Notes: generated by a model from the letters alone, not told the origin. A stretch of DNA of 64,000 bases from Sphingomonas sp. (GCF_036387595.1 NZ_DASVTL010000117.1:18573-82572), one strand, 5' to 3'. Counted from the stretch's first letter, positions 8,042 through 42,349 are shown. Numbers and translations: made by a program.

Positions 8042-11000
8042 CTAGAAACGCAGCCGCACGTTCGCGGTTACCCGGCGACCAACCGCGTCATACGTCGACG
8101 GGAAGGTGTTGCCGCTGTTGAACGCGGTCGATCCAGCGCCCGCGCCGACCAGTGGCGGCTGCTTGTTGAGCAGGTTCTCCGCCGTGAACGTCAGCGTCAT
8201 GGTCTCGGTCACGCCGAAACGGGTCGTCAGATCGAAATAATGATAGGCGGGGATCGTTCCGAGATTCTGGTTGCCGAAGCCGGTGATCAGACCCGAGTAA
8301 TAGGGTCCGTTGCCGTTCTCAATATCGTCAGGCTCCTGCGTGACGGCATCTAGGTAGCGCCAAAGGAGCGAAACATCGACGTCGCCGATCGTCAGGGTTG
8401 TGCGCTGCGAGAACTGGAACTCGGGCTGAATGGAGCCACAGTTCACGCTGTAGAAGCCTACGCAGTCACGATCGAGCGCGGTCGGCGTAGCCTGGAAGCG
8501 CGAATTGTTGTTCCAGGTTCCGATGAAGCCCAGATTCAGGCCCGCAAAGCCGAGATCACGGCGATAGTTGACCGTGAGATCGACACCATCGTTGTACAGC
8601 TTGCCCAGGTTCGACGAGGCCAGGAACAGGCCAGGCGTCGTCGCAGGGTCACCATCCAGCGCACCGGTTGCCGGGTTGCGCCGGATGATCGTGCAGGCAT
8701 CGGTCGTTTCCGCCCCAGCGGGTGGCGCAAAGACGTTCGCACCGAAGCACGCCGCGATCGCGTCGCCCGGCGTCGGGCTGGAAACGGCGCCCTTCACCTT
8801 GATGTTGAAGTAATCCACTGCGATCGACAGACCCGACACGAAGTCGGGCGTGAACACGCCACCGATCGTGTAGGTGTTGGCGACTTCCGGACGAAGGTTG
8901 ACGTTGCCGCCGCCGGTCGAATTCGCCTGCTGCGCCGTCGGGTCGTTGATCGAGTTGATGTTGCCGACAGTCGCCCCCTGCGCAAGGCAGACCGCGCGAA
9001 GCGTGCCGGTCGGATCGGGGCGGCCGTTGTCCACGCCCGATCCGTCCAGGGTGGCGCACGGATCGATACCCAGGTTGGTCAGACCGGTGCTCACCGGCGC
9101 GAATAGTTCGCCGATGTTGGGTGCCCGAACCGCACGCGTATAGTTGCCGCGGATCTTGAAGCCGTAACCCGGCTCCCACTGACCGCCGACCTTGTAAGTC
9201 GTGGTGTTGAACGTGGGCGAACCAGGCGCATCGACCTTATAGTCGGAGTAGCGGACGCCTGCTTCCAGCGTCAGTTCCTTGAAGAACGGACGGTTCTGGA
9301 TCAGCGGCAGCAAAAGCTCGCCAAACGCTTCATAGACTTCGTAGCCGCCGTCGATGTTCGGTGCAGCGCCACCCGAGCCGCCCAGTTCGCCTGCGGTCTG
9401 TGCCAGCGTGTCCGACCGCTGCTGAGCACGATACTTGCGATACTCGCCACCGACCGCGAAACCCAACACGTCGTCCGCGAACGGCGAAGCGAAGCCGAAG
9501 TTGCCGCTGATCGTGCCACGTGCCTGCGCCAGGGTGGTGCGGACCGTCGTGGTCGATTCACCCGTGATGTAGGGAATCTGGTTCGGCAGGATCGAGCCCT
9601 GCGCACCGAACAGGTTGATGGGGACGCAGCCCGCGCCCGCGCCAATGTCCGCCCCACCCGTCGCGCCGCCGAGGCAAGTCGTGGTGTTCGTGGCATAGAC
9701 GGCAGAACGGAGGCGCGAAGTGAGCGTGTAGCCCTGCAGCGTCTGCTGGTTTTCGCTCTCGCCATAAGCGCCGTTGACATCGAAGTTGATGTTGCTGGTG
9801 ATCGCACCGCGCAGGCCGAGGCGATAATCGAACACCGTGCTGGTGAACTGGCTGATCCGCGGCCCGACTTCGACCGCACGGCGGCTGATGTTGACCGCCG
9901 GGTTGAGGTTCAGGGTCTCGCCCGCCTCGATCGTGCCGTTGCCGTTGACGTCGAAGGGAACGGGGGCGCCGTTGCCCACTGCGCGGAAGTTAGGGTCCGC
10001 CGGCGACGTCGCGGTTGCGGCCGCGTTACATTCCGCCACGGTGAAGCGCGGACGATAGACTGCGGCAGAGGGATTGACGTCGAACGCGCAATATTGCGCG
10101 CGCAGACCGGCCGGCAGATATGGGTTGCTCAGCGGGACGACAAACGACGAGCCGAATGAACCCGAAGGCGCAACGAGGGTGCTCACGGTCTGCTTGGAGA
10201 ACAGGCCACGGGTATAGACCTCAAGACCGTCCGAAACCTCGTACTTCGCCTGACCGAACATGTTGAACCGCTCGAACGGGGTCTGGAAGATGTTGTCCGG
10301 GTTGAAGTTGAACGCCTGGAATGGCGTTACGGCGTTGCCGGTCGCCGGGTTGATCTGACGACCGCCGCCGTTCCCCGTGGCGGGGTTCGTGCTGGGCAGA
10401 CCGGTAGCGGGGTCGATCGGACGGGTGCCCGTGAAGGTCGAGGGAACCGAGGTGCCCGAACCACCGCCAACGGCGCCGGTGAATGTATCGACGTTCAGCA
10501 CCGAGATCTTGCGATCGCCCTGGAAGACCGGATCGACTTCCTGATAGCCGACGCTGAACACGGCGTTGCCGCGGCCGTCGTCGAAATTGGCGCCGATCGT
10601 GACATCGGCGCGCAGGCGGTTGCCGTCACCCTTTTCGCTGATGCCTTCGCTGATGTTGATCTCGGCGCCCGAGAAATCCTGGCGGGTGATGAAGTTGACC
10701 ACGCCGCTGATCGCGTCCGCGCCATAGGTGGTGCTGGCACCACCGGTCAGCACTTCGACGCGCTCGACGAGCGCCAGCGGAATGTTGTTGAGATCGACGA
10801 CACCGGCAAGGTTGCCGGGAACCGGACGGTTGCCGTCGAGCAGCACGATGTTGCGGTTAGTACCCATGCCGCGAAGGTTGACGAACGACTGGCCGCCGTT
10901 GCCGTTGTTGACGGCCGAACCGATGGACGGAACCGCGCCGGGCAGCTCGCGCAGCAGCTCTTCGGCGACGTTCGCTGCCTGCAACTCGACTTCATCGCGA

Positions 11001-11227
11001 CCGATGACCGAAACCGGGCTGGATGACTCCAGGTTCGGGCTGCGAATCAGCGAGCCGGTGACGACGACGTCGGCTGAAGGACTCTCTTCGGCGGCCGAAG
11101 ACGCACCGGTGGTCGACGCGTTCTGCGCGTCCTCGGCAGGCGCTACCTGCGCCGACAGAGGAGTGCCAAGCATGGCGGCACCGGCGAACAGCGTTGACGC
11201 GAGAAGCCGCGAGCGAACAGATTTCAT
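8042..11227 (-). CDS. TonB-dependent receptor (large, about 1060 aa)
   Basis: ORF 8042..11428. ATG at 11227 gives the signal peptide MKSVRSRLLASTLFAGAAMLGTPLSAQ. Plug motifs are VVVTGSLIR and VEVLTGGASTTYGADAISGVVNFI. The C-terminus ends NVRLRF. Confidence 0.9.
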   Translation of the reverse strand: MKSVRSRLLASTLFAGAAMLGTPLSAQVAPAEDAQNASTTGASSAAEESPSADVVVTGSLIRSPNLESSSPVSVIGRDEVELQAANVAEELLRELPGAVPSIGSAVNNGNGGQSFVNLRGMGTNRNIVLLDGNRPVPGNLAGVVDLNNIPLALVERVEVLTGGASTTYGADAISGVVNFITRQDFSGAEINISEGISEKGDGNRLRADVTIGANFDDGRGNAVFSVGYQEVDPVFQGDRKISVLNVDTFTGAVGGGSGTSVPSTFTGTRPIDPATGLPSTNPATGNGGGRQINPATGNAVTPFQAFNFNPDNIFQTPFERFNMFGQAKYEVSDGLEVYTRGLFSKQTVSTLVAPSGSFGSSFVVPLSNPYLPAGLRAQYCAFDVNPSAAVYRPRFTVAECNAAATATSPADPNFRAVGNGAPVPFDVNGNGTIEAGETLNLNPAVNISRRAVEVGPRISQFTSTVFDYRLGLRGAITSNINFDVNGAYGESENQQTLQGYTLTSRLRSAVYATNTTTCLGGATGGADIGAGAGCVPINLFGAQGSILPNQIPYITGESTTTVRTTLAQARGTISGNFGFASPFADDVLGFAVGGEYRKYRAQQRSDTLAQTAGELGGSGGAAPNIDGGYEVYEAFGELLLPLIQNRPFFKELTLEAGVRYSDYKVDAPGSPTFNTTTYKVGGQWEPGYGFKIRGNYTRAVRAPNIGELFAPVSTGLTNLGIDPCATLDGSGVDNGRPDPTGTLRAVCLAQGATVGNINSINDPTAQQANSTGGGNVNLRPEVANTYTIGGVFTPDFVSGLSIAVDYFNIKVKGAVSSPTPGDAIAACFGANVFAPPAGAETTDACTIIRRNPATGALDGDPATTPGLFLASSNLGKLYNDGVDLTVNYRRDLGFAGLNLGFIGTWNNNSRFQATPTALDRDCVGFYSVNCGSIQPEFQFSQRTTLTIGDVDVSLLWRYLDAVTQEPDDIENGNGPYYSGLITGFGNQNLGTIPAYHYFDLTTRFGVTETMTLTFTAENLLNKQPPLVGAGAGSTAFNSGNTFPSTYDAVGRRVTANVRLRF

Positions 11228-11505
11228 TGCAGAACCCCTTGAGTGCCAGCCTGTTAGCCGGTCGGTTTCCCCATTCGAGACGAAGCGAACAACGGCCCGA
11301 TGAACCCCATCTTTACGGAACCTCCATCCCGCTTCGCAATGCACAACGCGACCGTTGGGGCGCAACACGCGGTTTTTGCGACGCGTTGTGGCAAAAGCGT
11401 CACAATCGGTGACGGCTCGGTGCTGCATGCTTGCCGGGCTGGGCGATGGCAGTCAGTAAGGGCCGATGGGGTCCAGCCGCTCGCTGCGCGATATGAGGAA
11501 AACGA

Positions 11506-13112: not shown

Positions 13113-14483
13113 TCACAGCAACGTCGGTTGCTCGCCGGGTGACCGATCATAGGTGCGTGCGGTGCCGCGCTCAACCCGTGCATCCGTGGTCCCGTCGGCA
13201 AAGCGCAGGGTCAGCGCCCCGGCGGTGCGCGCTGCCTCGGCGGTGGAAAGCGTCGCACCGCCGATGCGCGCGGTGACGCGGGCGTAGCCGCGCTCCAGCA
13301 CCCGATCGGGATTGAGCGACCCCGCGAGCCGCCACGCCGCATCCAGCCGCGCGCGGTCGCGCTCCAATTTTCGCATCAGCATCGCCGGCCTGAGTGCGCT
13401 GCCCGCGCGATCGAGCGCCCCGCGCGCGCTCGTCGCCCGCCGCTCCAACCCGCGATCCAGCCGGGCGCCTGCATCGTCGGCACGCTGGCGCTGCGGCCCG
13501 AGCAGCGCGTCGCGCTTGGGCATCAGCCGCGCAAGCCCCTCCAGTCGTTCGCGCCCGCGCTCGATATAACGGCGGGCACAGCGTTCGGTGCGAGTGGCCT
13601 GAGCGGTGATCGTCAGCCGCAGGTCGGCAAGCACCGGCACCGCGATCTCCGCCGCCGCAGTCGGCGTCGGCGCACGCAGGTCGGCGGCGAAATCGCACAA
13701 GGTGGTGTCGGTCTCGTGCCCCACCGCCGAGATGATGGGGATGGTGCATTCTGCGACTGCGCGCACGACGATTTCCTCGTTGAATGCCCACAGATCCTCT
13801 ATCGAACCGCCGCCACGGGCGACGATCACCAGGTCCGGGCGCGGCATCGCACCGTCTTGCGCCAACGAGTCGAAGCCGCGCACGGCGGCCGCGATCTCGG
13901 CCGCGGCGCCTTCGCCCTGCACCTTGACCGGCCACACCAGAACATGCGTCGGACACCGGTCCTCCAGCCGGTGGAGGATATCGCGGATCACCGCGCCGGT
14001 GGGCGAGGTAACGACGCCGATGACCCGCGGCAGAAAGGGCAACCGCTGCTTGGCGGATGCGTCGAACACTCCCTCGGCCGCCAGTTTCGCTTTCAGCTTG
14101 TCGAGCAACGCCATCAGCGCGCCCGCACCCGCCAGTTCCATCCGCTCGATGACGATCTGATATTTCGAGCGGCCGGGATAGGTGGTCAGCTTGCCCGTCG
14201 CGATCACTTCGATGCCGTCCTGCGGCGCGAAGGCCAGTCCACCGGCCTGCCCCTTCCAGATCACGCCGTCGATCACCGCTGCATCGTCCTTGAGGCAGAG
14301 GTAGGCGTGGCCCGACGCAACCCGCTTGTAGCCGGAAATCTCGCCGCGCAGCCTGACATGGCCGAATTCGCCCTCGACCATCCGCTTCAGCCGGCCCGCA
14401 ACCTCGCTCACGCTTTGCGCGGGTGCGTTGTCGCCGGGCACTGCCTCGGCTACCAGCCGGGGATTGTCGAAGGGGGTGGCCAT
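13113..14483 (-). CDS. xseA: Exodeoxyribonuclease VII large subunit
   Basis: [44 protein letters not shown] forms the OB-fold N-terminus, followed by a catalytic core and a coiled-coil tail. Length is 456 aa. Confidence 0.9.
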
Positions 14484-15747
14484 GAACGTCCTGCTGATCG
14501 GTGGAGGTGGGCGCGAACATGCGCTGGCGTGGAAGCTCGCCCAGTCGCCCGCGCTCGATACGCTTTACGCGGCGCCGGGCAACCCCGGCATCGCGCATCA
14601 TGCGACGTGCGTCGCGCTGGATGCGACGGACCACGCGACCGTGGTGGCGTTCGCCATGAAGCATGCGGTCCGCCTGGTCGTGATCGGGCCGGAGGCGCCG
14701 CTGGTCGACGGCTTGGCGGATACTCTGCGCGATGCGGGCTTAGCTGTGTTCGGACCGAGTGCGGCGGCGGCGCAGCTGGAGGGGTCGAAGGGCTTCACCA
14801 AGGATCTATGCGCGCGAGCAGGCATCCCCACCGCGGGCTATATACGTTGCAATGACGTCGACACCGCGCATGCCGCGCTCAAGGGCACGTTTGGGCTACC
14901 CGTCGTCGTCAAGGCGGATGGGCTGGCGGCGGGGAAGGGCGTCGTCGTCGCCTTCGACCATGCCACTGCCGCCGCCGCGGTCGATTCGATCTTCGCAGAA
15001 CCGGGCGCGCAGATCGTGATCGAGGAATTTCTGGAGGGCGAAGAGGTGAGTCTTTTCGTGCTCACTGACGGCCAAGCCATCCTGTCCTTCGGATCGGCGC
15101 AGGATCACAAAAGGGTCGGCGAGGGGGACGTTGGCGCGAATACCGGGGGCATGGGCGCCTATAGTCCTGCGACCGTGCTGACGCCCGAACTGGAAGCCCG
15201 CGCGCTCGCCGAGATCGTGCTGCCGACCGTTGCGGCAATGCGCGAGTCGGGTACGCCGTTCTCGGGCGTGCTCTATGCCGGGCTGATGCTTACGCCGCGT
15301 GGCCCGCAGTTGATCGAATATAACGCGCGCTTCGGCGATCCCGAGGCGCAGGTGCTGATGGCGCGTTTTTCGGGTGACCTGCTCCACACGCTGCTGGCCG
15401 TCGCGGAGGAGCGATTGGCGATGCTGCCACCGGTTGCGTTCGACGACGCGGTGGCGCTGACGGTGGTGATGGCGGCCCAGGGCTATCCCGGAACACCTCG
15501 GACGGGCGGGCGCATCGCGGGGCTGGCGGACGCCGAGGCGACCGGCGCGATGGTCTTTCAAGCGGGAACCCGGATGACCGGCGACGGGTTGGTCGCAAGC
15601 GGTGGCAGGGTGCTCGCCGTGACCGCGACCGGCACCGACGTCGCATCGGCGCAGGCCGCGGCGTATCGCGGGGTCGATGCGATCGATTTCGAAACCGGCT
15701 TCTGCCGCCGGGACATCGGCTGGCGTGAAGTGGCGCGAGCAGGCTAG
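14482..15747 (+). CDS. purD: Phosphoribosylamine--glycine ligase
   Basis: Within ORF 14428..15747, ATG at 14482 gives [23 protein letters not shown]. The ATP-grasp core is present throughout. Confidence 0.95.
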
Positions 15748-15750
15748 GGT

Positions 15751-16392
15751 ATGGCAATGACCGACGGAACCAGCGCGATCACGGGTATCCACATCGCGCT
15801 TATCGCCGTGCTGGCGGTGCTCGCTATCGTCGCGATGATCTGGGGCGTGCGCCTGAAGGCGAGGCGGGTGCAGGCAAAGAAGGAGGTTGAGGTCCACGCC
15901 GAGGAAGCGGGCGTGGAGATCATCCCCGCTGATGCGCAGGTTCCGCCGGAGCCACTGCCGGTCGCGCCGCTTCCTCCTCCGTTCGCCGATCAACCCACGC
16001 CGGGCATGCCGCGAGCGGTCAGGGCGCACGTCGAAGGCGCCCCCGCTCCCGAGCCGCTCGCCGATGAGCCGATCGCTGCTGCTTCGGCGCCCGAGGGCGT
16101 GCCGGCCACGCTGGCGACCGACGCGGTCGTCGCCGAACCTGCGTTCGATCCGGCCGACGGCCCCGTCACCCAGATCAAGGGACTCGGGCCGCGCGTAGCG
16201 ACGCGGCTCGGCGAACTGGGGATCGACCGGGTCGGACAACTCGCCGCGCTCGATGCCGCCGGTGCGGCAGCGCTCGATGCGCAGATGGGACCGTTTACCG
16301 GGCGAATCACTCGTGATCGCTGGGTCGAACAAGCGCGCCTGTTGGCGTCTGGCGACCGCGAAGGGTTCGAGCGGGTTTTCGGCAAGCTCTGA
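15751..16392 (+). CDS. Membrane-anchored protein with a Pro-rich linker and a C-terminal helix-hairpin-helix-like domain
   Basis: A single N-terminal TM helix (IHIALIAVLAVLAIVAMIWGV), a PPEPLPVAPLPPPF linker, and a C-terminal IKGLGPRVATRLGELGIDRVGQLA motif. Confidence 0.7.
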   Translation: MAMTDGTSAITGIHIALIAVLAVLAIVAMIWGVRLKARRVQAKKEVEVHAEEAGVEIIPADAQVPPEPLPVAPLPPPFADQPTPGMPRAVRAHVEGAPAPEPLADEPIAAASAPEGVPATLATDAVVAEPAFDPADGPVTQIKGLGPRVATRLGELGIDRVGQLAALDAAGAAALDAQMGPFTGRITRDRWVEQARLLASGDREGFERVFGKL

Positions 16393-16440
16393 CGGGATCG
16401 CCAAAGCCACTACTCTCGCCTTGCATCGCAGCAACGAAAC

Positions 16441-18957
16441 GTGGACGCTGACGTCCGCATGACAGGGAACATCGCCATCGCGACGCAGACCGGGCAGATA
16501 CCCCTCTTCGACGCATCAACCCACGCGCGCCGGTGGATCGCCGATTATTGCGTGCGTCGGGTGTCGGGCGACGTGCTGTGCGACAGCGACGATCCGGCCT
16601 GGGCGGCGATGTTCGAAGAACTCGCGGTGGTCGCCTCGGACGATCTCGCCCATGCGCGCGAACGCGTCCAGCGTCATGCCGCGGATATCGGCACCGGCTT
16701 TCGCATCGTTGGTGAGGCGGACGAGCGACCCTGGCCTGTCTCACCCGTGCCGCTGCTGATTGCGGCAGACGAATGGGCGGAGATCGCACGCGGCATCGTC
16801 CAGCGCGCCGAGTTGATGGAGACGGTGATCGCCGATCTCTATGGGGAAGCCAAACTGGTCGAGCGCGGCCTGCTGCCCGCCGCGCTGGTCGCGGGCAGTC
16901 CGCTGTTCCTGCGGCCGATGGTCGGGCTTGCGCCGCCCGGCGGGCGGCATCTGCAATTCGTCGCGATGGACCTGGGACGCGGCCCGACGGGAGAATGGCG
17001 CGTTCTGGCCGACCACCTGCGCGCGCCTGCGGGGGCGGGCTATGCGCTGGAAAACCGGCTGGCGCTCAGTCGCACGCTGGGCGGATTGCAGGCACGATTG
17101 AACGTGCAGCGCCATGCGCCCTTCTTCGCGGCCATGCGCGCCGGGTTGGCGGCGGCATGCCGGCGAACCGACCCGCGCATCGGACTGCTTACGCCCGGCC
17201 GCTTCAATCCCAGCTATCCCGAACAGGCGCATCTGGCGCGCTATCTCGGGCTGCTGCTGGTCGAGGGCGCCGATCTGGCGGCGCTGGAGGACAAGGTGTA
17301 CGTCCGCACCATCGCCGGGCTAAAGCGGATCGACGCGTTGTGGCGGCGGGTCGATCCGCGGATGATCGATCCGCTGGCGTTCGATTCGCATTCGCAGATC
17401 GGCGTGCCTGGGCTAATCGACGCTTATGCCGCGGGCAACGTCGTCATCGCCAACGCGCCCGGCTCGGGCGTGCTGGAGGCGCCCGCATTTTCGGCCTTCC
17501 TGCCGATGATCGCCCGCCGGCTGCTGGGCGAGGATCTGCGCCTGCCCAACATCGCAACCTGGTGGTGTGGACAGCCGCACGAGCGCGCGCGGGTCGAGGA
17601 GGATTTCGAATCGATGATTATCGGCCCGGCATTCGGTGCCGCGCCGCTCGGCCTGCCCGGCGGCGTGGCCGTGCCGGGTGCCGATCTGTCGGCGCCGCTC
17701 CGCCGCCGCCTGCTCGACGATATGACCCGGCGCCCGCAGGATTACGTCGGTCAGGAAATCGTGCGGCTGTCCACCATGCCGGTGGTCAGCGGCGACGCGT
17801 TGGTTGCGCGGCCGTTCACTCTCCGGGTTTTTGCAGCACGGGGTGCGGACGGAGGCTGGACCGTGCTGCCGGGTGGCTTTGCGCGGATCGGCGAGCATGC
17901 CGACGCGCGCGCCGCGGTCATGGGCGAGGGCAATTGGTCCGCCGACGTGTGCGTCCATGGGGCGGATGCAGTGGCGCCCGTCTCGCTCCTCCCCACGACC
18001 GATTCGCTTGCTGTGCGGCGCAATCCCGGAACCTTGCCGAGTCGGGTGGCCGACAATTTCTACTGGCTCGGTCGCTATCTGGAACGCGGTGAGGCGCTGC
18101 TCGGCGCGATCCGGGTGATGCTGGGCAATTCGATCGACGTCGATCGCGGTGCCGCCCTGTCGAGCGAAACGGTGGGGCGGCTCGTCGGTCTCATCACCGG
18201 CGCGGGTGCTGCGCCGCACCCGCCGTCGCTGCATCGCACCGATCTGACCGCCTTGGCGCGCACCGCGATGGAAGACGAGGCCGGGCAATCGGTCGCCACG
18301 ATCAACGCCCATGCGCGTGCGATCGGCGACGGATCGCGCGACCGCCTGTCGGCAGACATGACGCGGCTGCTCGATGCGCCTTTTCCGCGCCACCCCGGCA
18401 TGCTCGATCGCGCAGGGTCGCTCCACCGCCGCTACGCCGCGATCCTGGGGCTGTCCGCCGAACATATGGTGCGCACCGCATCATGGCGTTTCCACGATCT
18501 CGGGCGGCGGATCGAACGCGCGGTCGGGATCGCGCGGGCGGTGCGGGTGTTCGGCATGCCCGGCGCGTCGGCGGACGACCTCTCGACGCTGCTCGATTTG
18601 GTCAATAGTCAGATCAGCTATCGCCAGCGCTATCCAACCGGCATCGCGCGCGTGCCCGTGGTCGATCTGGCGGCGCTCGACCCCGGAAACCCGCGCGCGC
18701 TGGCGTTTCAGATGGAGCGGATCGTCGAGCATCTGGCCGCGTTGCCGGTGCTGGCCGACGACGGCATGGCCGAGGCGCAGCAGGCGCAGGCCAATGCGCT
18801 TGCCGCGCGCGTCGCCAATGCGACCGCGCATGGCTTGGACGCCGATCTGCTGGGCGATGTCGAATGGCGGCTGAGCACCTTGTCAGATGCGATCGCGCGC
18901 CGATATTTCCTCCAGGGCGCCGAACCCCTGCGCGCGCCGGGATTGACACTGGCATGA
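16441..18957 (+). CDS. Fusion protein: circularly permuted type-2 ATP-grasp domain + alpha-E domain (formerly DUF404/DUF407 + DUF403)
   Basis: An 838-aa ORF starting at GTG 16441 (ATG alternative at 16459). The N-terminal ~480 aa and C-terminal ~320 aa (NFYWLGRYLERGE..., SYRQRY...) match my memory of the two families. Confidence 0.8.
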   Translation: MDADVRMTGNIAIATQTGQIPLFDASTHARRWIADYCVRRVSGDVLCDSDDPAWAAMFEELAVVASDDLAHARERVQRHAADIGTGFRIVGEADERPWPVSPVPLLIAADEWAEIARGIVQRAELMETVIADLYGEAKLVERGLLPAALVAGSPLFLRPMVGLAPPGGRHLQFVAMDLGRGPTGEWRVLADHLRAPAGAGYALENRLALSRTLGGLQARLNVQRHAPFFAAMRAGLAAACRRTDPRIGLLTPGRFNPSYPEQAHLARYLGLLLVEGADLAALEDKVYVRTIAGLKRIDALWRRVDPRMIDPLAFDSHSQIGVPGLIDAYAAGNVVIANAPGSGVLEAPAFSAFLPMIARRLLGEDLRLPNIATWWCGQPHERARVEEDFESMIIGPAFGAAPLGLPGGVAVPGADLSAPLRRRLLDDMTRRPQDYVGQEIVRLSTMPVVSGDALVARPFTLRVFAARGADGGWTVLPGGFARIGEHADARAAVMGEGNWSADVCVHGADAVAPVSLLPTTDSLAVRRNPGTLPSRVADNFYWLGRYLERGEALLGAIRVMLGNSIDVDRGAALSSETVGRLVGLITGAGAAPHPPSLHRTDLTALARTAMEDEAGQSVATINAHARAIGDGSRDRLSADMTRLLDAPFPRHPGMLDRAGSLHRRYAAILGLSAEHMVRTASWRFHDLGRRIERAVGIARAVRVFGMPGASADDLSTLLDLVNSQISYRQRYPTGIARVPVVDLAALDPGNPRALAFQMERIVEHLAALPVLADDGMAEAQQAQANALAARVANATAHGLDADLLGDVEWRLSTLSDAIARRYFLQGAEPLRAPGLTLA

Positions 18958-19871
18958 GCGATACGGTGGATGAAGTTCTCGATTTCAAGCCGATGGTGTA
19001 CGATATCCGGCACCTCACCCGGTTCGATTACGGCGCGCAGGTCAAGTTCGCGCGGTGCAATCTCAGGCTGAAACCAATCGACTGGCCGGGGCAGCGGCTG
19101 GTTTCCTATACGCTCGACGTGGAGCCGGTCGGCCGCACCAGCCCTGCACGGGCCGAGGCAGGACGCGCGAATGTCACGCGCCTGGTGGTCGATCAGCCGG
19201 TGCGGACGCTGACGATCGAGAGTCGCGCGCATATCGTGGTGGATCGGCTGGTGCCGGTGCCTTCAGCGTCCGATCCGACGCTGGCCGAGGTCGCGGCGAT
19301 GGCGCGGGCAAGTCGCGATCTCTCGCCGGGCTGCCCCGCGACCTATCTCTATCCTTCGCCGCTGATCCCGTTAGACCGCGACATAGCGGACTATTGCGCC
19401 GCCGATCTCGCGCCGGATGCGCCTGCGCTCGAAGCGGGGATCGCCCTAGCGCGGCGCATCCAGCGCGACTTCACCTTCGATCCGACCGCGACGCTGGTGG
19501 ATACGCCCCCGCACGAGGCGTTCCACCGCCGCGTCGGGGTGTGTCAGGACTTCGCTCAGATCATGATAACCGGCCTGCGCGCTGCCGGCCTGCCCGCCGC
19601 CTATGCCTCGGGCTACATCCGCACCATCCCGCCATCGGGCGAGCCGCGACTCGTCGGCGCGGACGCGACGCACGCGTGGGTCTTGCTCTGGTGCGGCCCG
19701 GTCCAAGGCTGGATCGGGCTCGATCCCACCAACGGCATCTGGATGGCGGGCGACCATATCGTCGTCGCGGTGGGACGCGATTATGCCGAGATCGCACCGG
19801 TAGACGGCGTGGTCCTTGGTTCGGGCGCCCAGGCGATGGAGGTCAGCGTCGATGTCGCCCCGGTGGAGTGA
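18954..19871 (+). CDS. Transglutaminase-family protein (bacterial transglutaminase N-domain + transglutaminase core)
   Basis: ATG at 18954 overlaps the upstream stop (ATGA). The N-terminus is MVYDIRHLTRFDYG. The Cys-His-Asp triad appears in contexts RRVGVCQDFAQ, ADATHAWVLLW and WIGLDPTNG. Confidence 0.85.
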   Translation: MSDTVDEVLDFKPMVYDIRHLTRFDYGAQVKFARCNLRLKPIDWPGQRLVSYTLDVEPVGRTSPARAEAGRANVTRLVVDQPVRTLTIESRAHIVVDRLVPVPSASDPTLAEVAAMARASRDLSPGCPATYLYPSPLIPLDRDIADYCAADLAPDAPALEAGIALARRIQRDFTFDPTATLVDTPPHEAFHRRVGVCQDFAQIMITGLRAAGLPAAYASGYIRTIPPSGEPRLVGADATHAWVLLWCGPVQGWIGLDPTNGIWMAGDHIVVAVGRDYAEIAPVDGVVLGSGAQAMEVSVDVAPVE

Positions 19872-19898: not shown

Positions 19899-20123
19899 CT
19901 ACCGGGTGGCGGCGTTCGGCTGCTCGCCGTCCTTCTCTGGTCCGCTGTACGCCTGTTCCGTCTGCCCGCCGTGCCCGAAGAAGCCGCCTGCGCGCTTGTC
20001 GGGTTTGACGCCGTTCGGATAGGCACCCGGGCTGCCGCCGTCGCCGGGTGCGTTGTTGACGCCATCGGGCTGGTGCGCATTGCCGCTGCCACCGTCCGCC
20101 TGCATCTGCTGCTTGTCGCTCAT
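19899..20123 (-). CDS. Small hydrophilic Gly/Pro/Asp-rich protein (74 aa), stress-protein-like
   Basis: Within ORF 19899..20213, ATG at 20123 is preceded by AAGGAGA. The sequence MSDKQQMQADGGSGNAHQPDG...GGFFGHGGQTEQAYSGPEKDGEQ has no hydrophobic core. Confidence 0.6.
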   Translation of the reverse strand: MSDKQQMQADGGSGNAHQPDGVNNAPGDGGSPGAYPNGVKPDKRAGGFFGHGGQTEQAYSGPEKDGEQPNAATR

Positions 20124-20145: not shown

Positions 20146-20171
20146 AACGCGCGAAGGCGGCCAAGCGTTCG
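20146..20171 (-). promoter_or_regulatory. EcfG-type (general stress response) promoter candidate for the 74-aa gene
   Basis: The minus strand reads cGAAC-N17-CGTT, ending 22 nt before the ATG. This is one mismatch from the GGAAC-N16/17-CGTT consensus. Confidence 0.45.
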
Positions 20172-26651: not shown

Positions 26652-28787
26652 ATGAAGCTGATTAATCCACTGCTCCTGGGCGCAGCGCTCTATGGCATGC
26701 CTGCGACCGCTCAGACGGTGGCGCGCGCCGACGACATCGTCGTTACCGGGCAAAATATATCGACCGGCGCCGCCACCAAGACGGACACGCCGTCCATCCA
26801 AGTGCCGCAGCCGGTGACGGTGATCCCGGCGGACCTGTATGAGGCGCAGGGCGCCGTCTCGATCTCCGACACGCTCAACTATGTCGCCGGTGTGCAGTCC
26901 AATCCCTACGGCCCGGACAGCCGCGTCGACGGCGCCACGATCCGCGGCCTGAACGCGCTCCAATTCCGCGACGGCATGCGCGACATCTTCAGTTTCTACG
27001 CCAGCATCCGTGCCGATCCGTACAATTTCGACAGCGTGCAGGTGCTGCGCGGTCCCTCGTCGATGCTCTTTGGCCAGGGATCGCTCGGCGGCCTCGTCAA
27101 CCTCAATTCCAAGCTGCCTTCCGCGACCGCCGCGGGTGAGGTCGCGGTCCGGTACGGCAGTTTCGATCGCAAGGAGGCGCTGTTCGATTTCACCGGGCCG
27201 ATCGCGAGCGGATTGGCGGGGAGGATCGTGGCGCGAGTGCGGGATGCCGGCACGCAGACCGACTTCGTTCCCGACGACCGCGTGATGATCGCGCCGTCGC
27301 TCACCTGGTCGCCAGGCGGCGATACCGACGTGACGCTGCTGGGGCTGTATCAGCAGGACGATGGCGGCTCGACCGCGCAATTCCTGCCGCTGGTCGGCAC
27401 GATCCTTCCCAATGCGAACGGCCAATTGCCGAACGACCGCTTCATCGGCAAGCCGGGGTGGGATCGCTATGACGGTCGGCTGTTGCAGGGCACCGCACTG
27501 GTGACGCACCGTCTCGGTGAGCAAGCCAAGATCAGCCTGAAGGCCCGCTACATCGACAGCGACCTGACCTATCTGACGCATTATCCCAACAGCTATTCGA
27601 ACCCAGCCAATCCCTATGTGCTGCTGGACCCGGCCACGGGCATGCCGGTGGTCGATCCGCTCACCCGCGTGCCCGCGCGCGATCCCGAACAGCGGACGAT
27701 CGGACTCTATGCCGACGGCAGCACCGCGCGGATGGAGATATTTTCGAGCGACAATACCGTCCAGCTCGGCTTCGCAACCGGCAGCGCGATCGATCACGTC
27801 GTCCTCGCCGGCCTGGATTACAGCTGGAACCACGTCCGCAAGACCGGGGGCTTCGACCTCGAATATATCGACATCTACGACATCGATTATGGCGCGATAT
27901 CCGACTTCGGCGGTGGCTTGCCGCAACCTGCGGCGCCGTCGGCGGATGTCGAGCAGGATCAACTGGGTTTCTATCTGCAGGATCAGATCCGGCTTTGGGA
28001 CCGGGTGTCGGTCGTCCTGGGCGCGCGGCGCGACCGGGTGTCGACCAGTTCGTTCGGCGGGCCGCGCGTGGTGCAGAGCGCCACCACGTTCCGCGCCGGA
28101 GTGATCGGCGAGATCGTGGCCGGCATCTCCCCCTTCTTCAGCTACACCGAGAGTTTCGAGCCGATCGCGGGCGTCGCCAGCAACGGCAATCCCTTCGTGC
28201 CCAAGGCGGGAAGCCAGTATGAGGTCGGCATCAAATACCAGCCGAACGATGCGAGCATGATTACGGTGACCGGCTACCGCATCAAGGAAACCAACCGGCC
28301 GATCGACGATCCGGCGACGGCGGACCCGTTCGACCAGCGGCAGGCGGGCGCGCTCACCTCCCGCGGTGTCGAGTTCGAGGCGCGCACGACGCTGCCCGGC
28401 CAGGTCCAGCTGATCGCCAATTACAGCTATAACGAGGCCGAGATCGACGGCACGAACCGTCAGCTCGACAACGTGCCCAAGCACAATGCGTCGCTTTGGG
28501 CGGCACGACCCTTCATGCTGGCGAGCGGCGTGAGCCTGCGGATCGGCGCGGGCGTGCGCCATGCCGGTGAAAATCGGTCCTTCGGGCCTGCGTTTCCCGA
28601 CGGTATCGCGACGCCCGACTATACGCTGGTGGATGGCTTTGCAGAAATACGCTGGCGCCGCTGGGGCTTGGCGCTCAACGCCACGAACCTGCTCGGGAAG
28701 GATTATTATTCCGCCTGCCTGGCGCGGGGCGATTGTTTCGTCGGTGCCGAGCGCAATGTCTTCGGCACGCTGCGCTACCGGTTCTGA
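26652..28787 (+). CDS. TonB-dependent siderophore receptor
   Basis: Signal peptide MKLINPLLLGAALYGMPATAQ. DDIVVTGQ is a TonB-box-like motif, and VQVLRGPSSMLFGQGSLGGLVNL is a plug motif. The C-terminus ends GTLRYRF. The ~700-aa size and the PepSY partner downstream fit the siderophore class. Confidence 0.9.
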   Translation: MKLINPLLLGAALYGMPATAQTVARADDIVVTGQNISTGAATKTDTPSIQVPQPVTVIPADLYEAQGAVSISDTLNYVAGVQSNPYGPDSRVDGATIRGLNALQFRDGMRDIFSFYASIRADPYNFDSVQVLRGPSSMLFGQGSLGGLVNLNSKLPSATAAGEVAVRYGSFDRKEALFDFTGPIASGLAGRIVARVRDAGTQTDFVPDDRVMIAPSLTWSPGGDTDVTLLGLYQQDDGGSTAQFLPLVGTILPNANGQLPNDRFIGKPGWDRYDGRLLQGTALVTHRLGEQAKISLKARYIDSDLTYLTHYPNSYSNPANPYVLLDPATGMPVVDPLTRVPARDPEQRTIGLYADGSTARMEIFSSDNTVQLGFATGSAIDHVVLAGLDYSWNHVRKTGGFDLEYIDIYDIDYGAISDFGGGLPQPAAPSADVEQDQLGFYLQDQIRLWDRVSVVLGARRDRVSTSSFGGPRVVQSATTFRAGVIGEIVAGISPFFSYTESFEPIAGVASNGNPFVPKAGSQYEVGIKYQPNDASMITVTGYRIKETNRPIDDPATADPFDQRQAGALTSRGVEFEARTTLPGQVQLIANYSYNEAEIDGTNRQLDNVPKHNASLWAARPFMLASGVSLRIGAGVRHAGENRSFGPAFPDGIATPDYTLVDGFAEIRWRRWGLALNATNLLGKDYYSACLARGDCFVGAERNVFGTLRYRF

Positions 28788-39210: not shown

Positions 39211-40034
39211 CGCCTTGCTCCTGCGTTCGCCAGCGCCTCGATCGCGTCGAGCAGGAACCAGCCGCCGCACGCGGTCCATGCCCCCTCGATCCCGACCACC
39301 GGCCGGTCGCGGAGCTGCGCGCGCGCGATCGGGTGGCGCGCGGCGCTCCACCGATCGGGATGGTTGGTCCTGGAGCCGAAGAAGGCCGCGGCCACCACGT
39401 CCGGGCCGCCATAGGCCAGCCGTTCGAGCGGCAGCGGCTGCCATCCAGAGTCGCGCTGAAAATTGCGATAGCCCGCGGTTCGCAGCATCTCGTCCACCAG
39501 CGTACCCGCGCCGGTCGTCACCCCGCCCGGCGTCATGTAGAGCGCGGTCTGCTTCATCGGCCTGCGCCGGAGCGCGGCGAGACGGGCGTCCATCTGCACC
39601 GCGACGCGCTCTCCCGCCACCGGTTCGCCCAGCCCCTCGGCCACGTCGACCAGGGTCTGCCGGACACCGGCGATGTCCGACGCATAGCCGATCTGGAGCA
39701 CCGGCACCCCGGCCTTCTCGAGGAACGCGGCCACGCCGGGGCCGCCGCCATAGGAGCGGATGACGAGATCGGGGCGGAGCACCAGCACGTCCTCCGCCCG
39801 CGGCGCGACGCTCGCGACGCCGCGGGCCGCTTTGCGCATGTACGAGAAGTCGCTTTGCGCATCCGGCGACAGCGCCAGGATGCGATCGCGCGCGACCAGT
39901 TTCAGCGCATATTGGTCGGCGCAATAATCCAGGCTGACGATCCGCATTGGCCGCACCGGCAGCTGGGGCAGCGACGGGGCGGGGGCCTGTGCGCACCCGG
40001 CCAGCGCCAATGGGACGGCCAGCGCGCGGATCAT
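39207..40034 (-). CDS. btuF: Periplasmic substrate-binding protein (BtuF/FecB cluster A type), lipoprotein
   Basis: The lipobox is LALAGC. RIVSLDYCADQYALKL is typical of class III binding proteins. The start overlaps the btuB stop. Confidence 0.75.
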   Translation of the reverse strand: MIRALAVPLALAGCAQAPAPSLPQLPVRPMRIVSLDYCADQYALKLVARDRILALSPDAQSDFSYMRKAARGVASVAPRAEDVLVLRPDLVIRSYGGGPGVAAFLEKAGVPVLQIGYASDIAGVRQTLVDVAEGLGEPVAGERVAVQMDARLAALRRRPMKQTALYMTPGGVTTGAGTLVDEMLRTAGYRNFQRDSGWQPLPLERLAYGGPDVVAAAFFGSRTNHPDRWSAARHPIARAQLRDRPVVGIEGAWTACGGWFLLDAIEALANAGARR

Positions 40035-41953
40035 ATCTTCAGCCGCACGCCGGCATAAGCGGCACGCCCCAGCGTGCCGTAGCCCAGGATCGTCTCATAC
40101 TTCTCGTCGAACAGATTCTCGATCCGCCCGAAGAGTTCGATTCCCTGCCCGATCGGGTAGGCCGCGCGGATGTCGGCCAGGACATATCCGTCGAGGCGGC
40201 TGGTGTTGGCGGCATTGTCGAAGCTGTCCCCGACATGCGCCAGCGTGGCGCCCGCCTGAAGCCCGAAATCAAAGGCATAATCGGCGATTACGCTGACGGT
40301 CTGGCGTGGTCGCCGGGCGAGTTGGAGCCGGTTGAGCCGGTTCCGTGCGTCGATGAAGCTGTATTGGCCCCGAAGCGTGAAGCGGTCGATCGGACGCAAG
40401 GTCGCGCTGAGTTCGACGCCTTGCGCGCGGGTTAGGCGGATGTTGTCGTAGGTGCCCGAAGGCCGGCCGACGCAGATCGCAGCGGGGTTGCGGGTGCAGG
40501 AAATGAAGTCGATCTGATTTTCGGTATTGCGGTGGAAATAGGTCGCCGCCAGGTCCACTCGGCCGCCGAACCGCTGGCCGATCCCAACCTCCCAGCTCTC
40601 CGATCGTTCGGGGGCGAGCGTGGTGTTGCCGAAGTTGCTGTAGAGCTGGAACAGCGACGGCGCCTTGAAGCCTTCGCCGTAGGCCGCGCGCAGGCGGGTC
40701 GCGCCGCCGTTGGGGCTGTACACGCCCGAGGCCGCGAAGGTCGTCGCATCGCCGAAGGTCTGATGGTCGTCGTGACGGACTCCGCCGGTCAGGACCCCGC
40801 CGGCGAACGGCTTGACGCTCGCCTCCCCGTAGACGCTGCTGATCCGCACGTCGGCGCCGGCCGGCGCCCCGCCGAAGCTGGCGGACACGTAGCGCGAGGT
40901 TTCCGTCTCCGCACCGAACGTCGCATCGACGGGATCGAGATCGACGACGCCCTGATATTCGAAGCGCTCGTTTTCGCCCTGCGCGTCGAAGGTCGTGCGG
41001 ATCGCGCCATCGGGGTCGATGTTGGTCCGCTCCGTCCGGGTATAGGCGAAGGCGAAACGGTTGCGGAACCGGCCGCCCAGCAACGTCGCGTTGACGCCGC
41101 CATAGCCGACCAGTTCGCGCGTCTTTCCCCCCTCGCGCGTGTCGGCGAAGGCGAAGGCCGGGGCGGGGAAGCCGTCGACATCGGCCTCGCCGTCCGAATA
41201 GAAGCCGCGCAGGTCGATCGAGACGGTGTCGGTAAGGTCGATCAGCGCGCGCGCGTTCACCCCGAAATTGTCGAACCCGTCGCGCTCGCGCCCGCCGCTT
41301 TTTTCGTCGAGGGCTGAGATGCCGTCGGTGCGGAAATAGCCCGCGCCCGCGCTTGCCGCGACCGGGCCGACGCGCGCCGAGACGTTGCCGAACGCCTGAT
41401 ACGTATCGCGCCACCCGCCTTCCGCGCGCGCATTGATGCGCAGGGCGTCGGTGGGCGCGGCGGTGAGCAGGTTGACGACGCCGCCGATCGCCTGGCTGCC
41501 CCAGATCACGGATTGCGACCCGCGAACGACCTCGATCCGTTCGATGTTGCCGACCAGGAGGTTCCCGAAATTATACCCGCTGCCGGTCGAGGACGGATCG
41601 TTGAGCTTCACCCCGTCAATCAGGACGACGTTCTGGTCGCTGTCGGCGCCGCGGATGTTGACGCCGGTGGCGGTGCCCGGGCCGCCGTTGCGGGTGAAGG
41701 TGACGCCGGGCACGGTGCGGAGCAGATCGACCACAGTCTGCGACTGACGGCGGCGTATCTCGTCGGCAGCGATGACGGTGACCGATTGCGCGACCTCGTC
41801 TGCGGGCCGTGCGGTACGGTTGGCGGTCACGATGACATCGCCGGCAGCCCCGGCGGCCGAATCGAGATCGCGGCCGGTCTGGGCGGAGGCGGGGGCCGCG
41901 ATGGCGATCGCCAGCGCGCCGGCGCTGGCAGGTAGAATGGAGAAGCGGAACAT
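40031..41953 (-). CDS. btuB: TonB-dependent corrinoid receptor
   Basis: Signal peptide MFRFSILPASAGALAIAIAAPASAQ, DVIVTANR as the TonB box, and plug motif IEVVRGSQSVIWGSQAIGGVVNL. About 640 aa. A cobalamin riboswitch lies immediately upstream. Confidence 0.9.
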   Translation of the reverse strand: MFRFSILPASAGALAIAIAAPASAQTGRDLDSAAGAAGDVIVTANRTARPADEVAQSVTVIAADEIRRRQSQTVVDLLRTVPGVTFTRNGGPGTATGVNIRGADSDQNVVLIDGVKLNDPSSTGSGYNFGNLLVGNIERIEVVRGSQSVIWGSQAIGGVVNLLTAAPTDALRINARAEGGWRDTYQAFGNVSARVGPVAASAGAGYFRTDGISALDEKSGGRERDGFDNFGVNARALIDLTDTVSIDLRGFYSDGEADVDGFPAPAFAFADTREGGKTRELVGYGGVNATLLGGRFRNRFAFAYTRTERTNIDPDGAIRTTFDAQGENERFEYQGVVDLDPVDATFGAETETSRYVSASFGGAPAGADVRISSVYGEASVKPFAGGVLTGGVRHDDHQTFGDATTFAASGVYSPNGGATRLRAAYGEGFKAPSLFQLYSNFGNTTLAPERSESWEVGIGQRFGGRVDLAATYFHRNTENQIDFISCTRNPAAICVGRPSGTYDNIRLTRAQGVELSATLRPIDRFTLRGQYSFIDARNRLNRLQLARRPRQTVSVIADYAFDFGLQAGATLAHVGDSFDNAANTSRLDGYVLADIRAAYPIGQGIELFGRIENLFDEKYETILGYGTLGRAAYAGVRLKI

Positions 41954-42059: not shown

Positions 42060-42290
42060 GAAAGGAGCATGCTCCCCATCCCCATTGGCTGGACCCGGCC
42101 CGGGACGAACGACGCGACGGCAGGTCTCCTGACTCGCCGATCAGCGCCTCGGGCCGTCTTCCCGGAGGGTTAGCTCCAGTGACATGGTGGCCGTCGACTC
42201 CTGGCTCACAGTTGCGGGCACAGTCCCGGTATCGCACCGGGTTCCCTCTTCGCCTCCGCGTTGCCGCGGCGGAACCGTCTGTCGCGCGCC
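42060..42290 (-). promoter_or_regulatory. Cobalamin (AdoCbl) riboswitch, aptamer plus putative expression platform
   Basis: The minus strand reads GGTTCC...GAAGAGGGAACCCGGTGCGATACCGGGACTGTGCCCGCAACTGTGAGCCAGGAGTC...CACTGG...GGGAAGACGGCC...GAGTCAGGAGACCTGCCGTC (B12 box, 42116-42135). A palindromic hairpin GGAGCATGCTCC + TTTCG (42064-42075) follows. Confidence 0.85.
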
Positions 42291-42349
42291 ATCGCCGCCA
42301 CCGCAGCTGTTGTCAACGGCGGCGGTTCGCCCGGGGTGCCCGTGCCCCC

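Follow-up and report, generated by a model that had tools for sequence, protein, structure and literature searches.

Bacterial gene clusters that combine a circularly permuted (CP) ATP-grasp protein, an Alpha-E protein and a transglutaminase have been defined computationally, and two roles, tagging and peptide synthesis, were proposed for them (Iyer et al. 2009, as cited in PMC6376114 and PMC5666114). Both proposals are still called unconfirmed in papers on the structure of Anbu, a proteasome homologue (PMC6376114, PMC5666114). Our full-text literature search found no paper giving a substrate or a product for the family, in agreement with a first-pass annotation of the DNA studied here, which had stated that neither had been demonstrated. 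In Yersinia, a stand-alone ATP-grasp homologue releases phosphate from ATP (PMC6376114). Here, we analyzed a fused form of the system in a 64-kb stretch of Sphingomonas sp. DNA (GCF_036387595.1, NZ_DASVTL010000117.1:18573-82572; ∼68% G+C), which we refer to as the window. The locus consists of a gene for a fused CP ATP-grasp/Alpha-E protein (16441..18957, + strand; here called the ligase) followed by a gene for a 305-amino-acid (aa) transglutaminase-fold enzyme with a Cys-His-Asp triad (18954..19871, + strand; here called the transglutaminase). We tentatively read the pair as a cytoplasmic ligase/thiol-amidase (or transamidase) module that acts on a small peptide-like metabolite, and we assign this reading a probability of roughly 40%.

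In the Pfam search, CP_ATPgrasp_2 (PF14403) matched residues 104-483 of the ligase along model positions 1-373 of 374 (E = 4.1e-129; 431 bits against a cutoff of 32). CP_ATPgrasp_1 also matched the ligase (E = 3.5e-83), and Alpha-E (PF04168) matched residues 532-823 along the full model (1-294/294; E = 6.9e-56; 190.5 bits). The ATP-grasp half occupies about residues 50-500 and the Alpha-E half about residues 530-825. In the transglutaminase, Bact_transglu_N (PF08379) covers residues 16-94 (E = 8e-17; 62.2 bits against a cutoff of 27), and Transglut_core (PF01841) covers residues 154-258 (E = 4.5e-15; 56.3 bits against a cutoff of 23). NCBIfam had no model for either protein. The first-pass annotation had described a single 838-aa open reading frame (ORF) with an ATP-grasp N-terminal half and an Alpha-E C-terminal half; the Pfam matches agree with this description, and the four families that it had proposed to check by profile (CP_ATPgrasp_2, Alpha-E, Bact_transglu_N and Transglut_core) were all recovered well over their curated cutoffs.

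We aligned 44 diverse fused proteins and found 29 columns to be invariant. In the other 43 proteins, conservation reaches 90% or more at 104 columns; the window ligase matches 98 of these and therefore does not look degenerate. Its six deviations are R192H, L225H, M476L, W504C, L540F and R555G.

An AlphaFold2 model of the ligase, built with the 44-sequence alignment, had a mean predicted local distance difference test score (pLDDT) of 88.5 and a predicted template modeling score (pTM) of 0.86, which suggests that the two halves take up a defined mutual arrangement. The nearest solved structure to the ATP-grasp half is PDB 3N6X (sequence E = 2.6e-62; Foldseek E = 4e-29; target template modeling score [TM], 0.83; 27% identity). 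A Foldseek search of the PDB also returned the glutathione/homoglutathione synthetases 2HGS, 3KAL and 8FBZ (E of about 1e-10), with further matches to Cp1B (9CJN), GspS (2IO7), YjfC/YgiC (7UK6/7UKA) and trypanothione synthetase. The modeled ATP-grasp half is accordingly predicted to have the permuted ATP-grasp fold of 3N6X and eukaryotic glutathione synthetase. All the characterized neighbors act by way of an acyl-phosphate, linking an amine to the carboxylate of a small molecule or a peptide. The glutathione and homoglutathione synthetases couple a small peptide with an amino acid, and the glutathionylspermidine and trypanothione synthetases couple a peptide with a polyamine. YgiC and YjfC are peptidylpolyamine synthetases and Cp1B is an epoxysuccinate (dicarboxylate)-amino-acid ligase, with an acyl-phosphate mechanism (PMC12568646). 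By analogy with these enzymes, the fused protein is a predicted ATP-dependent carboxylate-amine ligase.

The C-terminal half of the full ligase model had no match in the PDB. A separate model of Alpha-E (pLDDT, 84.4) consists of 13 helices, and its Foldseek search against the PDB likewise gave no fold neighbor (best E, 0.5; TM < 0.3). Profile matches of Alpha-E to designed helical proteins among the PDB sequences were spurious and were discarded. Two ER motifs mark the domain. In the first, W542-L-G-R-Y-L-E548-R549-G (18064..18090, + strand), W542, R545 and R549 are invariant among the 44 fused proteins and E548 is at least 90% conserved; in the second, W682...G688-R-R-I-E692-R693 (18484..18522, + strand), W682, G688, E692 and R693 are all invariant. 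Arginine accounts for 13 of the 36 best-conserved Alpha-E positions, against 11% arginine overall, and this enrichment suggests that Alpha-E may bind an anionic ligand.

In the transglutaminase, the motifs GVCQDF, DATHAW and GLDPTNG begin at residues 195, 237 and 255, and all 76 aligned homologues have the triad residues C197, H240 and D257. Its matches in the PDB are 6G49 (E = 3e-11) and 3ISR. As the N terminus (MSDTVDEVLDFKP...) has no signal-peptide character, the transglutaminase and the ligase are both presumably cytoplasmic.

The proteins nearest to the ligase come from Sphingomonas, where orthologues are 75 to 92% identical, where S. melonis is among the species with close homologues and where many genomes carry the annotation "circularly permuted type 2 ATP-grasp protein," the NCBI name of the nearest homologues. 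A HMMER search of 1.84 billion cluster representatives (clustered at 50% identity) retrieved 8,596 clusters at an E value of ≤0.001 and 1,764 at ≤1e-30. The best 150 clusters are nearly all fused proteins of about 800 to 890 aa. The fused family is very large and widely spread.

To describe gene context, we surveyed 80 related genomic loci and six contexts of distant cluster representatives. The ligase gene is followed by the transglutaminase gene in 75 of the 76 loci that are complete at that point (the exception being L046, from Sphingomonas sp. Leaf17) and in all six further contexts. This order was seen in Sphingomonas, Bosea, Beijerinckia, Roseiarcus, Caulobacterales, Chthoniobacter, Verrucomicrobiota, Desulfuromonas and one Bacteroidota genome. 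Synteny downstream of the pair is limited to Sphingomonas, and the conserved unit appears to be the ligase-transglutaminase pair alone.

The two genes of the window share an ATGA stop/start overlap (18954..18957, + strand). At the junction, which reads ctggcATGAgc, the TGA of the ligase (18955-18957) overlaps the ATG at 18954 that opens the 305-aa frame. The overlap and the intact triad had both been reported in the first-pass annotation, and the junction sequence and the invariance of the triad in the 76 homologues bear them out. Overlaps of 4 nucleotides (nt) were found in 41 of the 76 loci and overlaps of 1 nt in 11; among the other 24, 14 have the genes at most 22 nt apart or overlapping by 8 nt. 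Judged from this arrangement, the ATGA overlap couples translation of the two genes, and such coupling is conserved across phyla. The ORF listing gives a longer frame (18864..19871, + strand) that contains the 305-aa transglutaminase frame, and similarity to the transglutaminase homologues starts at Met14 of the latter; the overlapping start codon is nevertheless kept in most loci. On the ligase side, GTG 16441 is only the start of the longest ORF (838 aa). Because ligase homologues are mostly 822 to 829 aa long and similarity in the Sphingomonas loci begins at residues 3 to 24, ATG 16459 (832 aa) is more likely to be the start of the ligase.

The conserved pairing bears on a proposal that would separate the two proteins. 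In Mycobacterium tuberculosis, Rv2567, which we take to be a fused homologue, is encoded near Rv2569c, presumably a transglutaminase-like protein. Rv2569c has been reported to be a secreted "serine protease" that serine-protease inhibitors block but E-64 and N-ethylmaleimide (NEM) do not, and the same paper remarks on a predicted cysteine-protease domain (PMC11081392). If the window transglutaminase were likewise a stand-alone protease of broad specificity, its link to the ligase would be incidental. The predicted cysteine-protease domain of Rv2569c (PMC11081392) fits such an enzyme, but the inhibitor profile is a poor match for a Cys-His-Asp enzyme, and the window protein has no signal peptide. 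As gene order and translational coupling are kept across phyla, the link to the ligase does not seem to be incidental. We consider a stand-alone protease very improbable here, and we do not think that the Rv2569c report is relevant to a cytoplasmic Cys-His-Asp enzyme that is coupled to a ligase.

Our preferred reading is instead a two-enzyme cytoplasmic module that would make, and then process, one kind of amide bond. Going by its fold and family, the ATP-grasp half would use ATP to turn a carboxylate into an acyl-phosphate and join it to an amine. The all-helical Alpha-E would probably supply or position the substrate, which is most likely negatively charged. The coupled transglutaminase-fold enzyme would then form a thioester at Cys197, the outcome being either hydrolysis of the ligase product (an amidase) or acyl transfer to another amine (a transamidase). 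As the substrate, a protein is less likely than a small metabolite of a peptide-like, gamma-glutamyl or polyamine type, since every characterized structural neighbor is a ligase of small molecules and the pair is not accompanied by a substrate gene. Beside the pair there is neither a conserved small ORF nor a gene for a substrate protein, the neighbors being housekeeping genes, and their profile annotation contains no precursor-peptide gene, as the first-pass annotation had also noted. In relatives, a transglutaminase domain is fused to DUF2126, itself predicted to be an amidoligase, which supports the idea of a ligase and a thiol enzyme acting as a unit.

The usual targets of transglutaminase-fold enzymes are protein Gln or isopeptide bonds, which counts in favor of protein or peptide tagging as an alternative, and Alpha-E, with its arginine-rich surface, could serve to bind the acidic tails of proteins. 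A ligase of this kind would add an amino acid or a short peptide to the side-chain or C-terminal carboxylates of target proteins, and the transglutaminase would remove or transfer the tag, as in pupylation/depupylation or in RimK- and TTL-type glutamylation. Tagging was what comparative genomics originally suggested (Iyer et al. 2009, as cited in PMC6376114 and PMC5666114), and related unfused operons elsewhere include the proteasome-like Anbu (PMC6376114, PMC5666114, PMC8050072). However, the Yersinia operon proteins showed no stable complex with Anbu, and Anbu was found to be without peptidase activity (PMC6376114). Moreover, no Anbu, other protease, tag or target gene is present in the window or conserved beside the fused form, and no characterized structural neighbor that we found modifies a protein. 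We regard tagging as rather unlikely. Its minimal self-contained form, in which the ligase adds an amino acid or short peptide to protein carboxylates in an ATP-dependent manner, Alpha-E recognizes the targets and the transglutaminase erases or transfers the tag, we regard as unlikely; if true, it would be a new bacterial post-translational modification pathway that is widespread across phyla.

The first-pass annotation had called the locus the fused, Anbu-less variant of the system. There is indeed no Anbu-like gene beside the pair, which is flanked by purD, a gene for a 213-aa protein, a DnaJ-like gene and yihY. The label needs refinement, as the third partner that usually accompanies the fused form is a protein of ∼1,100 to 1,200 aa composed of Bact_transglu_N, Transglut_core and DUF2126 (annotated as "putative amidoligase"), rather than Anbu. 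A locus without Anbu represents a different subtype, Anbu belonging to the unfused subtype only, and is still a member of the predicted system. The DUF2126 gene adjoins the pair in 9 of the 80 loci and in three of the six extra contexts, including many non-Sphingomonas loci and also Sphingomonas jatrophae. The 64-kb window has no DUF2126 gene, and tblastn searches with four DUF2126 proteins matched only the small transglutaminase there. As far as the window goes, the locus is therefore the two-gene form of the fused subtype, a form that is also found in other lineages (L059, L064, L065, L068, L072 and L085). Close DUF2126 homologues occur in peripheral "Sphingomonas" species, Sphingobium, Novosphingobium and Rhizorhabdus. 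Among the best 120 DUF2126 matches, there was no named core species with a close ligase homologue, which suggests that DUF2126 may be absent from core Sphingomonas. Searched against the PDB, the DUF2126 protein is matched only in its N-terminal transglutaminase part.

Fused and unfused sets occur side by side in other taxa. A metagenomic locus (L084, 1160-11180) carries a six-gene supercluster of an unfused ATP-grasp, an Alpha-E, a DUF2126-transglutaminase, a fused ligase and two transglutaminases. At two further loci (L077, 2169-10512; L047, 16540-18260), the fused system adjoins an unfused CP-ATP-grasp/Alpha-E(/transglutaminase) set. In view of these superclusters, the two subtypes may work together.

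Three of the six deviations of the window ligase are shared by its relatives. Almost without exception, the core-Sphingomonas clade, in which DUF2126 does not adjoin the pair, lacks the consensus residues R192, W504 and R555, which in the window are replaced by H192 (nt 17014-17016), C504 (nt 17950-17952) and G555 (nt 18103-18105). Distant homologues (≤50% identity), with or without an adjacent DUF2126 gene, keep R/K192 and R555, and all but one keep W504. S. jatrophae, which has DUF2126, keeps R555. The loss of these residues is one lineage-level event, and it hints at altered specificity or altered partner contacts in the clade.

Several reports connect unfused relatives of the pair with nitrogen metabolism, clusters of this type being induced when nitrogen is limiting. 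In Burkholderia cenocepacia, some of the strongest dependence on NtrC/sigma-54 is seen for the cluster I35_5080-5083, which carries genes for a DUF404/407 ATP-grasp, a DUF403 Alpha-E, a transglutaminase and a large transglutaminase protein (PMC5491218). In Pseudomonas putida, PP_2685-2688 (Anbu plus CP ATP-grasp) is induced on nitrate versus ammonium (PMC8050072), and in Bradyrhizobium there is a predicted sigma-54 site upstream of a CP_ATPgrasp gene (PMC13207237). These data argue for a nitrogen-economy module that turns over a nitrogen-rich compound, stored or scavenged (for example, a conjugate of gamma-glutamyl or polyamine type or a polymer of amino acids), mainly under nitrogen limitation, with the transglutaminase freeing ammonia or amines and the ligase rebuilding or priming the compound. 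All of this evidence, however, comes from paralogous unfused systems in other classes, and we found neither a sigma-54 nor an EcfG-type promoter upstream of the window ligase gene. Such a role also overlaps with the metabolite module that we prefer and is compatible with either chemistry. As an explanation of the window pair, we consider it distinctly unlikely. (A "DUF403" match in a paper on HEPN proteins was a false lead, the actual match being DUF4037.)

A conserved TTGCAT motif lies just upstream of the ligase gene (16421..16426, + strand). The TTGC part varies little or not at all across the 12 Sphingomonas upstream regions that we aligned, regardless of which gene lies upstream. By weak inference, the motif may be the −35 box of a promoter of the pair's own. 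The spacing to a plausible −10 in the window is short, and a scan with the sigma-70 consensus gave no promoter-like site at the TTGCAT.

Several points weigh against the metabolite module. The literature search yielded no substrate, product or phenotype for any member of the family. In the single experimental mention of Rv2567 that the search turned up, M. tuberculosis Rv2567 and Rv2411c were negative for synthesis of gamma-aminobutyric acid (GABA)-trehalose, the one product tested (bioRxiv 10.64898/2026.04.15.718621). The structural likeness of the window ligase to the small-molecule ligases is limited (target TM of about 0.4 to 0.66) and is higher only for 3N6X, which is itself uncharacterized. 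Peptide tagging of proteins has been proposed for the same family (Iyer et al. 2009, as cited in PMC6376114 and PMC5666114). Finally, given the loss of R192, W504 and R555, the activity in core Sphingomonas may differ from that of the wider family.

The window has xseA, purD and the gene for the 213-aa protein upstream of the pair, and the DnaJ/CbpA-like gene, yihY/brkB, fabI, aroC and purA downstream. We rejected these neighbors as a clue to function, as they are housekeeping genes whose synteny is confined to Sphingomonas. Compared with L004 (5469-7925) and 42 other loci, synteny breaks directly upstream of the ligase, at about 14400-16440 of the window. Of the 43 loci that encode LigD, with 3′-phosphoesterase, ligase and primase-polymerase domains, 39 have it on the same strand directly before the ligase; the window has xseA, purD and the 213-aa gene in its place and no LigD anywhere in its 64 kb. 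No EcfG-type promoter was found upstream of ligD in 39 Sphingomonas loci. The window contains no paralogue of the ligase or of the transglutaminase, and as a candidate defense system the locus was dropped, there being no PADLOC match.

The 213-aa gene lies between purD and the ligase (15751-16392, + strand); besides the window, only the two closest relatives (L001 and L002) have it ahead of the ligase. The C-terminal ∼100 residues of its product resemble the helix-hairpin-helix-like tails of the NuoE, L21, S2 and phasin PhaH models in NCBIfam (E = 1e-15 to 5e-8), all of these matches being far under the cutoff. ARAGORN called an 88-nt tRNA-Ala(GGC) at 16310-16397 (+ strand), overlapping the 3′ end of the 213-aa ORF, and a 95-nt tRNA-Arg(CCG) at 53004-53098 (+ strand), within a long ORF. 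Both calls score under the Rfam gathering threshold and are probably false positives.

An ORF (19899-20123, − strand) that converges with the transglutaminase gene and diverges from the DnaJ-like gene encodes a hydrophilic, Gly/Pro-rich protein of 74 aa (MSDKQQMQADGGSGNAHQPDG...), which had no match in Pfam or PADLOC. Ahead of the ORF are a GGAG ribosome-binding site and GAAC-N17-CGTT (20146-20170), the latter similar to the EcfG general-stress promoters of alphaproteobacteria. By tblastn, the ORF is found only in the closest relatives, L001, L002 and L027.

Elsewhere in the window, a cobalamin riboswitch (42102-42293, − strand; Rfam RF00174; 119.6 bits; E = 2e-29) lies just upstream of an ORF at 40031-41953 (− strand). 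The product of this ORF resembles the plug regions of the two TonB-dependent receptors of the window (29 to 32% identity) and is probably a B12-regulated BtuB-type receptor. The TonB-dependent receptor matches are encoded by ORFs at 8042-11428 (− strand) and 26652-28787 (+ strand), and such receptors are typical of Sphingomonadaceae.

With thousands of clusters in many phyla, including members in M. tuberculosis and Pseudomonas, the family to which the pair belongs ranks with the larger conserved enzyme systems of bacteria whose chemistry we did not find in the literature. The identity of the substrate would assign a function to four Pfam families (CP_ATPgrasp_1/2, Alpha-E, Bact_transglu_N and, by extension, DUF2126) and might also explain the enigmatic proteasome homologue Anbu. 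In the first-pass annotation, the locus was rated the strongest candidate of the window for unknown enzymology; this is fair, although the question is no more testable here than in thousands of other genomes. With two genes in housekeeping surroundings and some genetically tractable strains, the Sphingomonas version could be a simpler experimental entry.

Compared with described systems, the pair is closest to the predicted CP-ATP-grasp/Alpha-E/transglutaminase systems, with which it shares the same three Pfam families, the gene order, the fusion of ATP-grasp and Alpha-E and an intact triad. It differs from them in having no flanking Anbu, no large DUF2126 transglutaminase within the 64 kb and replacements of R192, W504 and R555. 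The nearest solved structure, 3N6X, is Mfla_0391 of Methylobacillus flagellatus, a structural genomics target deposited as a "putative glutathionylspermidine synthase"; it differs from the window ligase in being a stand-alone ATP-grasp protein of 474 aa without Alpha-E. The permuted ATP-grasp topology is shared with the eukaryotic-type synthetases 2HGS and 3KAL and with the fungal ligase Cp1B (9CJN) (Foldseek E of 1e-8 to 1e-10; target TM of about 0.6), which have 10 to 15% identity to the ligase, no Alpha-E and no transglutaminase partner. GspSA of E. coli (2IO7) and YgiC/YjfC have a related synthetase fold (Foldseek E of 1e-5 to 1e-6), with 10 to 14% identity. GspSA pairs its synthetase with a papain-like cysteine amidase that hydrolyzes the same bond and is the closest functional analogy for a ligase paired with a thiol enzyme, the analogy being mechanistic only. 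In GspSA, the amidase is a CHAP domain fused N-terminally and there is no Alpha-E, whereas the window has a separate transglutaminase-fold protein; the Pfam matches of the pair include no GspS or CHAP family, which places it outside the GspSA group. Transglut_core with a Cys-His-Asp triad is also present in the periplasmic domain of TgpA (6G49) and in a putative cysteine protease of Cytophaga (3ISR). TgpA is a membrane/periplasmic protein, in contrast to the presumably cytoplasmic window enzyme, which has Bact_transglu_N and is coupled to a ligase.

Overall, the locus is typical of an already known family that has been defined by computation and is uncharacterized biochemically. It is not a new kind of system, and in itself it adds no new biology beyond another family member. 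The points added to the family here are the two-gene form, the translational coupling of the pair across phyla, an arginine-rich Alpha-E without a solved relative, the substitutions of the core-Sphingomonas clade and the TTGCAT motif upstream of the ligase.

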